From: a bacterium
Lineage (GTDB): Bacteria > UBA8248
NCBI GenBank assembly: GCA_965203325.1
Contig: OZ241875.1
Coordinates: forward strand, 2,080,001-2,144,000
DNA: 64,000 bases
Direction of reading: 5' to 3'
The number at the start of each line of letters is the position of its first letter. The first letter of the stretch is position 1. Positions 21,033-21,762 of the stretch are shown piece by piece. A program made the translations under genes and the position numbers. The notes beneath the pieces are model-generated. The model was given only the letters and a program-made list of their open reading frames with translations, had not been told where the DNA came from and made no database searches.

Positions 21033-21656
21033 TCACCAGTTGGACGGCTTGGTGATGTTGGTGCCCGGAATCGGGGACGGAAGCTGATTCTTTCGCAGCG
21101 CTCTCTTTTGAATTCGGCGGGAGAAATCGGCATGGGCCATTAACTCTCGAGACGGATGACTCGCTCCGGGTGTTACCAGTCCAATCCATTTTCTTTTGTG
21201 CTTTTTCACAAGACGCATGCCCTCGGTGATATCGCTGTCGTTCGTAACTACTACCGCACAGTCGTAGTCATCCAGCCATGCATCGTTCAAGAGATGTACG
21301 GCGAGATTGACATCCGATCCCTTTTCCTCGGTCCTGACGACATTCACCAGCCTTCGCCTGTTGCCGGTATCAGCAAGCGGTGCTTGAATCTTATGCGTCA
21401 GAAAATGCCCGAAATAAACTTCGACCTCCGGGCAATGATGTCGCAATGCGCGCAGATAGGCATTTTGGCGCCGTGGCTCGGATGGGTCGTTCGGGCGCGC
21501 CGAAACGCGCGCCGTGAAGTATTTGATTTTGAGGATATCGTGGTGCGGCTTCAATACGTCACGGAACAGACCAGAGAGATCGAGCCATTTGAACGGCGTT
21601 TGCTTCAGCGAGCGGTAGTAGAGGTTGAATCCATCGACGTAGATATAAGTCCGCAT
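21033..21656 (-). CDS. NYN-domain (LabA/DUF88, PIN-like) ribonuclease
   Basis: YVDGFNLYY, YFTA, EEKGSDVNLA and TNDSD acidic motifs intact. Confidence 0.9.
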   Translation of the reverse strand: MRTYIYVDGFNLYYRSLKQTPFKWLDLSGLFRDVLKPHHDILKIKYFTARVSARPNDPSEPRRQNAYLRALRHHCPEVEVYFGHFLTHKIQAPLADTGNRRRLVNVVRTEEKGSDVNLAVHLLNDAWLDDYDCAVVVTNDSDITEGMRLVKKHKRKWIGLVTPGASHPSRELMAHADFSRRIQKRALRKNQLPSPIPGTNITKPSNW

Positions 21657-21665
21657 GTCTTACCT

Positions 21666-21727
21666 AAAAAAAGCAGGGCCTCATGAGAGGCCCCGCACCC
21701 AGCGGTCGAAGCCACTGGGGGAGTAGT
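21666..21727 (-). ncRNA. Two-hairpin small RNA/leader, copy B, upstream of NYN
   Basis: ACUACUCCCCCAGUGGCUUCGACCGCUGGGUGCGGGGCCUCUCAUGAGGCCCUGCUUUUUUU; second hairpin plus U7 is an intrinsic terminator 9 nt before the ATG. Confidence 0.75.
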
Positions 21728-21733
21728 GAAAAA

Positions 21734-21762
21734 ACTATGCCACTGTTCCGAGTCTTCGTCAA
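21734..21762 (-). promoter_or_regulatory. Sigma70-type promoter of RNA copy B and NYN
   Basis: TTGACG-N17-CATAGT with extended -10 TG. Confidence 0.7.

Follow-up and report, generated by a model that had tools for sequence, protein, structure and literature searches.

The window analysed here is a 64,000-nucleotide stretch of a bacterial genome of 4.39 Mb. On its minus strand, behind an agmatinase gene, lies a compact unit consisting of a promoter, a small structured RNA that ends in an intrinsic terminator, and a gene for an NYN ribonuclease (Table 1). An earlier note on this stretch had described the same arrangement, and each of its elements was found as described. The -35 hexamer TTGACG lies at 21762-21757 and the -10 hexamer CATAGT at 21739-21734, with a TG in front of the latter and a 17-nt spacer. 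The RNA is built from a short 5' leader of the form A..CCC, a first stem with a UUCG loop (21719-21698), a 1-nt linker, a terminator stem (21696-21673) and a run of seven U residues (21672-21666), which leaves a gap of 9 nt before the ATG of the nuclease gene (21656). For the 63-nt segment the computed folding energy is -37.1 kcal/mol (z = -7.17), and 0 of 200 shuffled sequences were as stable. At this locus, the terminator probably limits nuclease expression in cis.

Table 1. Positions of the RNA-nuclease unit, the second RNA copy and the surrounding features in the window.
Feature	Position	Strand	Basis
Sigma70-type promoter of the RNA/NYN unit, TTGACG-17-TGn-CATAGT	21734..21762	minus	9/12 consensus
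Small RNA copy 1, ~60-63 nt	21665..21727	minus	R1 match, 67.3 bits; start inferred from promoter
NYN (PIN-like) ribonuclease, HEC-09 family, 207 aa	21033..21656	minus	Pfam, PADLOC, AlphaFold, Foldseek
Agmatinase (arginase-family) 3' end, left copy of 51-nt direct repeat	21779..21829	minus	88% identical
Right copy of 51-nt repeat	20941..20991	minus	repeat comparison
Promoter of RNA copy 2, TTGACG-17-CATCCT, weaker -10	19145..19173	minus	sequence
Small RNA copy 2, orphan	19077..19140	minus	R1 match, 67.5 bits
71-aa ORF + Fic-domain gene, standing where the NYN gene was lost (context, outside the system)	18160..18992	minus	genus comparison
NYN 3'-end remnant, 27-28 nt, in-frame stop	~18086..18112	minus	repeat comparison, 81%

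The RNA does not correspond to a family in Rfam. Rfam 15 placed no family at its gathering score in the window, the abiF motif RF03085 included, and at E values up to 1 nothing was found at the RNA in 15 loci save one sub-threshold STnc50 score on the terminator of L150. The earlier note had named a match to an existing Rfam family as a ground for refutation. The same note had allowed that the motif might be a genome-wide repeat; a genome-wide search found two copies in the 4.39-Mb genome and no third, so this is not the case.

NYN was the only Pfam match in the protein (PF01936, E = 1.3e-8), and HEC-09 was its sole match in PADLOC (E = 9.4e-43, 144 bits), aligning residues 2-207 to profile positions 3-202/203. 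HEC-09 was also the best PADLOC match in 15 of 15 diverse homologs. A search of PDB sequences returned no significant match. The AlphaFold model (pLDDT 91.8) found 2qip (E = 3.9e-8) and the NYN domain of MARF1 as its top folds in Foldseek. The acidic motifs, which the earlier note had called intact, comprise D8, E111, D115, D140 and D142, and these five residues are 99-100% conserved across 144 non-redundant homologs. The family is very large: with clustering at 50% identity, its profile picks out 8271 clusters at E <= 0.001 and 1051 at E <= 1e-30. It also occurs in 450 plasmid records, one of which is 3.5 kb long and carries three annotated genes.

Several variants of the protein were observed along the way. 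Klebsiella accounts for 207 of the 450 plasmid records, and a distant member (L148:1850-2687), which has an RNA-like arrangement upstream, is common on the plasmids of this genus. In L149 (1492-2469), the NYN domain is fused to an antitoxin-type Xre/MbcA/ParS (DUF2384) domain, the architecture of NicB/HspA, and a promoter, hairpin and terminator still stand upstream. The DUF2384-fused distant homolog NicB/HspA is described in PMC5499597 as reported to be a hydroxylase of the nicotine pathway; the hydroxylase annotation of the group with this architecture deserves re-examination. In a further protein clade (L014, L015, L099, L121, L122, L127, L131 and L133), several members have a longer beta-hairpin, and the clade pairs with a distinct RNA class that has a GUGC-type loop and a longer linker, hinting at co-evolution of RNA and protein.

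The earlier note had also reported a second copy of the promoter and RNA with the same promoter spacing, both stems, an A-U pair replaced by G-C and one extra C relative to copy 1. All of these features are present, and two points can be refined. The -10 hexamer (CATCCT) and the U-tract (U4CU) are weaker than those of copy 1, and the form with the extra C is the family consensus, a bulged base near the base of the terminator that has been lost in copy 1. The region 3' of copy 2 holds the 71-aa ORF and the Fic gene and no NYN gene. The short remnant beyond them is 88-95% identical to NYN 3' ends in five relatives, and in G011 the start of an NYN gene is fused to this same remnant. The Fic protein has a weak match to mobile mystery protein B; among the relatives, G012 has lost the Fic gene, and in G011 and G016 the two ORFs are inverted and truncated.

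We mapped the local history of the unit in 17 genomes of the genus. It occupies a variable interval between the agmatinase gene and a HAD hydrolase gene, and the cassette is bordered by a duplicated 51-nt segment from the 3' end of the agmatinase gene; the relative G013 has an empty site with a single 51-nt copy and no cassette. The slot behind agmatinase holds an intact RNA and NYN gene in eight genomes, the RNA with a broken NYN gene in three and no cassette in six, and the RNA is kept beside all eight intact NYN genes. The second slot, beside the HAD gene, contains an intact NYN gene in none of the 17 genomes. There the RNA is followed by 41-62 nt of an NYN start (G003, G005, G022 and, twice, G007) or by the 71-aa ORF and the Fic gene or its remnant (G000, G012, G017 and G020), and in G011 and G016 the RNA itself is partial. 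As the second slot never has an intact NYN gene and an NYN 3' remnant is present, we conclude that copy 2 is a relic from which the nuclease was lost. The RNA and its promoter persist where the NYN gene is truncated or deleted. Taken alone this asymmetry is weak, because the genomes are related to one another and the NYN gene presents a target ten times the size of the RNA (624 versus 62 nt).

The interval as a whole (17248-22638) is a cassette hotspot in the genus. Its cassettes are repeatedly bordered by the agmatinase 3' end, of which a genome may have as many as three copies, and this suggests that cassettes insert by recombination there. When contigs of four sequencing runs of unrecorded kind were compared with the locus, they gave no information on expression, and no joint removing the cassette was found among the matches listed. 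Between the two RNA copies lie a HigA-family antitoxin gene with an apparently broken partner gene in front (19222-19690), and an endonuclease/exonuclease/phosphatase gene with a 120-aa membrane ORF (19691-20939), both of which have further copies elsewhere in the same and related genomes. A 481-aa ORF at 9461-10906 is transposase-like by sequence appearance. At L059:645-1490 there are three spaced RNA copies; the first two each precede a decayed NYN start and the third an intact gene.

To describe the RNA as a family, we used a covariance model, R1, with 37 seed sequences chosen by a regular expression, which overlooked 23 of 92 loci and placed others wrongly. From 80 genome loci found by protein, we searched 73, leaving out four duplicates and three with truncated upstream DNA. 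R1 matched upstream of the NYN gene in 71 of the 73 (E < 0.001), including 39 of the 41 outside the seed; by their record titles, the positive loci come from Pseudomonadota, Bacteroidota, Chloroflexota, Acidobacteriota, Planctomycetota and others. A scan of viral contigs with a single protein gave no match, while a scan with an alignment gave 39 loci, of which 28 matched R1 with no viral locus in the seed. The covariance-model check proposed in the earlier note therefore found what it was meant to look for, a conserved RNA with covarying stems beside NYN homologs.

Support for the stems came from two-sided base changes, which were found at 14 of 19 pairs in the seed and, outside it, at 15 of 19 pairs for viruses and at 17 of 19 for actinobacteria, the latter two alignments being fitted to the model and so leaning toward its own structure. 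In each set, 0 of 500 shuffles scored as high, the counts were far above those of slid controls, and the changes were tolerant of G-U pairs. In 133 non-redundant RNAs, with a control for relatedness, the top 12 of 1770 APC-corrected mutual-information pairs were all stem pairs. The 13th is a register shift that bulges a conserved U near the base of the terminator, and we observed no covariation for an antiterminator or a pseudoknot outside the two nested stems. The conserved bases are A4, the CCC run, the UUCG loop, GGG-Y-GCG and UGC, with the terminator loop free to vary; the 5' leader is ~8 nt long, and a variable unpaired guide segment is absent. The terminator pairs with a median probability of 0.999 and ends a median of ~10 nt before the start codon, 0 nt in some loci. 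Promoters with at least 9 of 12 consensus positions precede 72 of 127 homologous RNAs, compared with 6 of 127 shuffles, and the -10 hexamer mostly lies 3-8 nt before model position 1. While the RNAs of the window and of most loci consist of a single unit, tandem two-unit RNAs occur in L096, L108 and L147.

In distant clades (~25-40% identity) R1 fails, and a promoter, C-rich leader, hairpin and terminator are visible by eye in most, including plasmid members from Klebsiella, Xanthomonas and Agrobacterium. Intact NYN genes without the RNA are rare; the loci L103 and L088 are cut by contig ends. The alphaproteobacterial L487 and L492 have intact acidic motifs, and the RNA was seen on neither side of them. 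Both encode N-terminally extended, CxxC-bearing NYN proteins, apparently after the same upstream housekeeping gene, and possibly represent a domesticated, RNA-free branch.

The position of the RNA relative to the nuclease gene proved to be variable. It is upstream and co-directional in 119 of 144 non-redundant loci, a set that includes loci found by their RNA. An RNA-first scan of metagenomes gave at least 120 matches, of which 80 were taken, 79 matched R1 and 75 (>= 37.9 bits) were kept; an NYN gene or fragment adjoins 47 of these 75 and is convergent with a downstream RNA in 7 of the 47. Among 401 actinomycetotal genomes, 26 carry the gene, 25 of them new, and R1 matched 20 of the 25 new loci at E < 0.001 and three weakly. 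In these 25 loci the RNA is convergent in 12, upstream in 11, downstream co-directional in 1 and, by eye, divergent in 1, so that it is downstream or divergent in 14 of 25; NYN genes uncoupled from the RNA lack a terminator in front and, judged by eye, seem to be leaderless. In 22 new loci of Pseudomonadota we found five upstream R1 matches, eight upstream variants and six divergent variants (both by eye) and three with none, one of these a fragment; the divergent clade has the highest HEC-09 profile score (313 bits), and its RNA ends ~140 nt upstream of the gene. A draw of 401 Bacillota genomes had the gene in one, the centre genome only. Viral locus L123 is divergent, L124-L126 are convergent and near-identical, and a Mycobacterium prophage is also convergent. 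In L135 and L136, the nuclease gene is followed on the same strand by a short unit that has a promoter of its own and just one terminator hairpin, with a bulge; this may be the RNA in a minimal form.

Copies of the RNA that cannot be leaders keep the motif. The UUCG loop is retained in 15 of 19 non-leader R1 copies, compared with 97 of 122 leaders, and the GCG junction in 18 of 19, compared with 112 of 122. Promoters with at least 8 of 12 consensus positions stand before 12 of the 19 non-leader copies (3.5% of shuffles), and a -10-like hexamer lies at the right distance in 16 of 19 (19% of shuffles). Proteins with the convergent layout are 33-75% identical among themselves, the sister proteins L443 and L444 (69% identity) have the RNA in opposite, that is inverted, orientations, and one trio with a support of 99 contains three layouts. 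A single origin of the convergent layout was not rejected (AU p = 0.305 and 0.533), so these data do not establish independent origins; whatever their number, it is the long retention in a non-leader position that matters. As these 19 copies keep the motif, mostly with their own promoter, we conclude that the RNA is a free-standing gene and more than an attenuator.

Some RNAs stand without a nuclease. Of the 75 metagenome RNAs, 28 have no adjoining NYN gene: 3 lack downstream DNA, ~4 have a decayed NYN start (by eye) and ~21 show no trace. Two RNA-first scans of viral sequences gave 13 loci, all confirmed by R1, with 2 intact NYN genes, 2 fragments and 9 with none within 1.5 kb. Five of the viral orphan records, two of them 89% and 81% complete, were searched whole and contained no NYN match. 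The class without NYN is larger in viruses (9/13) than in metagenomes (~21/72; Fisher p = 0.01, a post hoc test on classes assigned by eye). We found no shared partner gene of the orphans among 21 metagenome neighbourhoods (by eye) and 9 viral ones (PHROGs). The viral orphan in L471 has a near-consensus promoter and that in L462 lies directly 3' of an Ulx-like anti-restriction gene. Phage-borne orphans may be decoys or relics.

From these comparisons, we consider it likely that the 60-nt RNA is a type III-like RNA antitoxin of the PIN/NYN RNase, the two genes forming a toxin-antitoxin module of new composition. The promoter would drive a ~60-nt RNA that ends, as its sequence indicates, at a constitutive intrinsic terminator. 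Where the RNA stands upstream, as in most loci, the nuclease would be made only through terminator read-through, and the RNA should therefore exceed it; the sequences thus conform to an antitoxin-in-excess design, a linked RNA gene with promoter and terminator. As downstream and divergent copies keep their own promoter, it is strongly implied that the RNA acts as a diffusible product. We propose that the RNA binds to the NYN protein, probably through the conserved junction of A..CCC leader, UUCG loop, GGG-Y-GCG linker and bulged terminator base, and occludes its exposed acidic active site. By analogy with ToxIN, AbiF and AvcID, a stop of host transcription on phage takeover or loss of the element would let the RNA decay, and the freed RNase would cut cellular or phage RNA, resulting in abortive infection or addiction. 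The invariant acidic residues and the relic pattern are indirect signs that the protein would be toxic when unrestrained, and the occurrence of the family on plasmids and its origin in Hma defence loci fit such a module. The earlier note had offered an antitoxin or an attenuator, and it is the antitoxin that is well supported comparatively, by the cross-phylum covariation, the constitutive terminator, the RNA outlasting the nuclease and the non-leader positions with their own promoter.

The main rival to this reading is that the RNA acts in trans without inhibiting, either switching the nuclease on as its cofactor, sensor or dedicated substrate, or being processed by it into the active species. 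The evidence for a free-standing RNA gene fits this equally well, and it would suit a tested HEC-09 member described as neither protective nor, by name, toxic (see below). However, the RNA lacks a variable unpaired segment that could serve as a guide, a terminator right before the gene is the excess-RNA design of inhibitory systems, and intact genes rarely occur without the RNA. We regard this rival as unlikely.

Less probable again is a cis-acting autoregulatory leader, whose terminator would hold expression down and which the nuclease would itself bind or cleave. The strong terminator and the predominance of upstream co-directional loci, in a set enlarged by RNA-first finds, are what such a leader predicts, and the retention of the RNA after loss of the nuclease is also expected under a cis-only model. 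Against it, downstream and divergent copies, which cannot be leaders, preserve the motif in full together with a promoter of their own, and an alternative antiterminator shows no covariation. Since many copies are downstream or divergent and no antiterminator covaries, the attenuator half of the earlier proposal does not stand as a general explanation. Riboswitches and attenuators as a class were rejected on the same two features, leader position and an alternative antiterminator fold.

Type I-like repression of the nuclease mRNA, by antisense pairing with the RNA or by interference from its transcription, is very improbable. In most convergent loci, no more than ~20 nt separate the end of the RNA from the NYN stop codon, so that read-through would be antisense. 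However, in 120 leader loci the RNA showed no pairing preference for its own coding sequence over others (-50.6 against -49.7 kcal/mol), the longest perfect complement having a median of 7.5 nt in its own and 7 nt in other coding sequences, and divergent and downstream co-directional copies and the conserved unpaired bases are left unexplained. On this lack of complementarity to the toxin mRNA in the 120 leader loci, we also set aside a type I toxin-antitoxin system. Least probable of all is a DNA-level element without functional RNA, the palindromic end or recombination site of a small mobile cassette: the 51-nt duplication in a variable hotspot and the orphan copies would fit, but the polarity of promoter and U-tract, G-U tolerant covariation, the UUCG loop, the 1-2 copies per genome and the origin of the duplication in host agmatinase sequence outside the motif speak against it.

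Among known systems, AbiF with its non-coding RNA antitoxin RCd22 (RF03085; bioRxiv 10.1101/2025.04.15.648962) shares the order of promoter, short structured RNA, intrinsic terminator and RNase gene. As described there, RCd22 acts in cis and in trans and is located on prophages and plasmids, and its two-motif RNAs resemble the tandem two-unit RNAs reported here. In contrast to the HEPN (Abi_2) toxin of AbiF/AbiD, the protein here is a PIN/NYN nuclease with no HEPN domain; the abiF motif is absent, the terminator hairpin has a conserved sequence, and the RNA gene takes four positions relative to the nuclease. ToxIN, CptIN, TenpIN and AbiQ likewise combine promoter, RNA, terminator and endoribonuclease with the antitoxin in excess, according to PMC12283969 and PMC13064643. 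Their described tandem pseudoknot repeats and ToxN-fold toxin differ from the usually single unit, two plain hairpins and NYN protein found here, and we rejected membership because repeats, pseudoknot and ToxN toxin are all absent (NYN being the only Pfam match, and 2qip and MARF1 NYN the nearest folds). AvcID, as described in PMC10511110, has a non-repetitive RNA antitoxin, a toxin unrelated to ToxN and activation by transcription shut-off. It differs in its dC deaminase toxin, an RNA of just under 300 nt and the lack of a predicted intergenic terminator.

HEC-09 (Payne et al., bioRxiv 10.1101/2024.01.29.577857; PADLOC PDLC04163) is the same protein family by full-length match. It came from Hma defence loci and was put forward as a candidate consisting of one gene; the main text of that preprint contains neither "ncRNA" nor "non-coding". 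There, one member gave E. coli no protection against the phages tried and is not named among the systems toxic on induction. Its RNA may have been cloned too, since the constructs took in ~150 bp upstream "where possible". This null result in E. coli counts against a defence role, and L487/L492 and the NicB/HspA hydroxylase report count against universality of the RNA-antitoxin reading. The LabA-like NYN.COG1432 proteins, including VPA0982 (2qip) and NicB/HspA, are similar in the NYN fold, at least four acidic residues and an exposed active site; they differ in that the account in PMC5499597 lists them as function unknown and describes no RNA partner. We found no NYN-RNA system in the literature searched, a scope that excludes subscription papers and several supplements. 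NYN, LabA and DUF88 terms are absent from the main texts of PMC5737381 and PMC11109978, and the NYN- or LabA-linked rows of PMC8040213, compared by description and not by sequence, are narrow human-microbiome motifs. The RNA partner is a new part of HEC-09.

RNA antitoxins are known for few toxin folds, namely ToxN, HEPN and a deaminase, and reviews describe one of these as having given rise to Cas13. If our reading is correct, this list would gain another toxin fold, that of a PIN/NYN nuclease kept in check by a 60-nt RNA, in a very large family, and a branch of the "function unknown" LabA-like proteins would obtain a first function. A bolder version, a pan-bacterial anti-phage system in which the PIN/NYN RNase is guarded by its free-standing 60-nt RNA and phages carry stand-alone copies as decoy antitoxins, strikes us as doubtful. 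HEC-09 needs testing as a two-component system. With 207 aa and 60 nt, the pair is of minimal size, directly testable and structurally tractable, and its movable RNA gene is a natural experiment in cis versus trans action.
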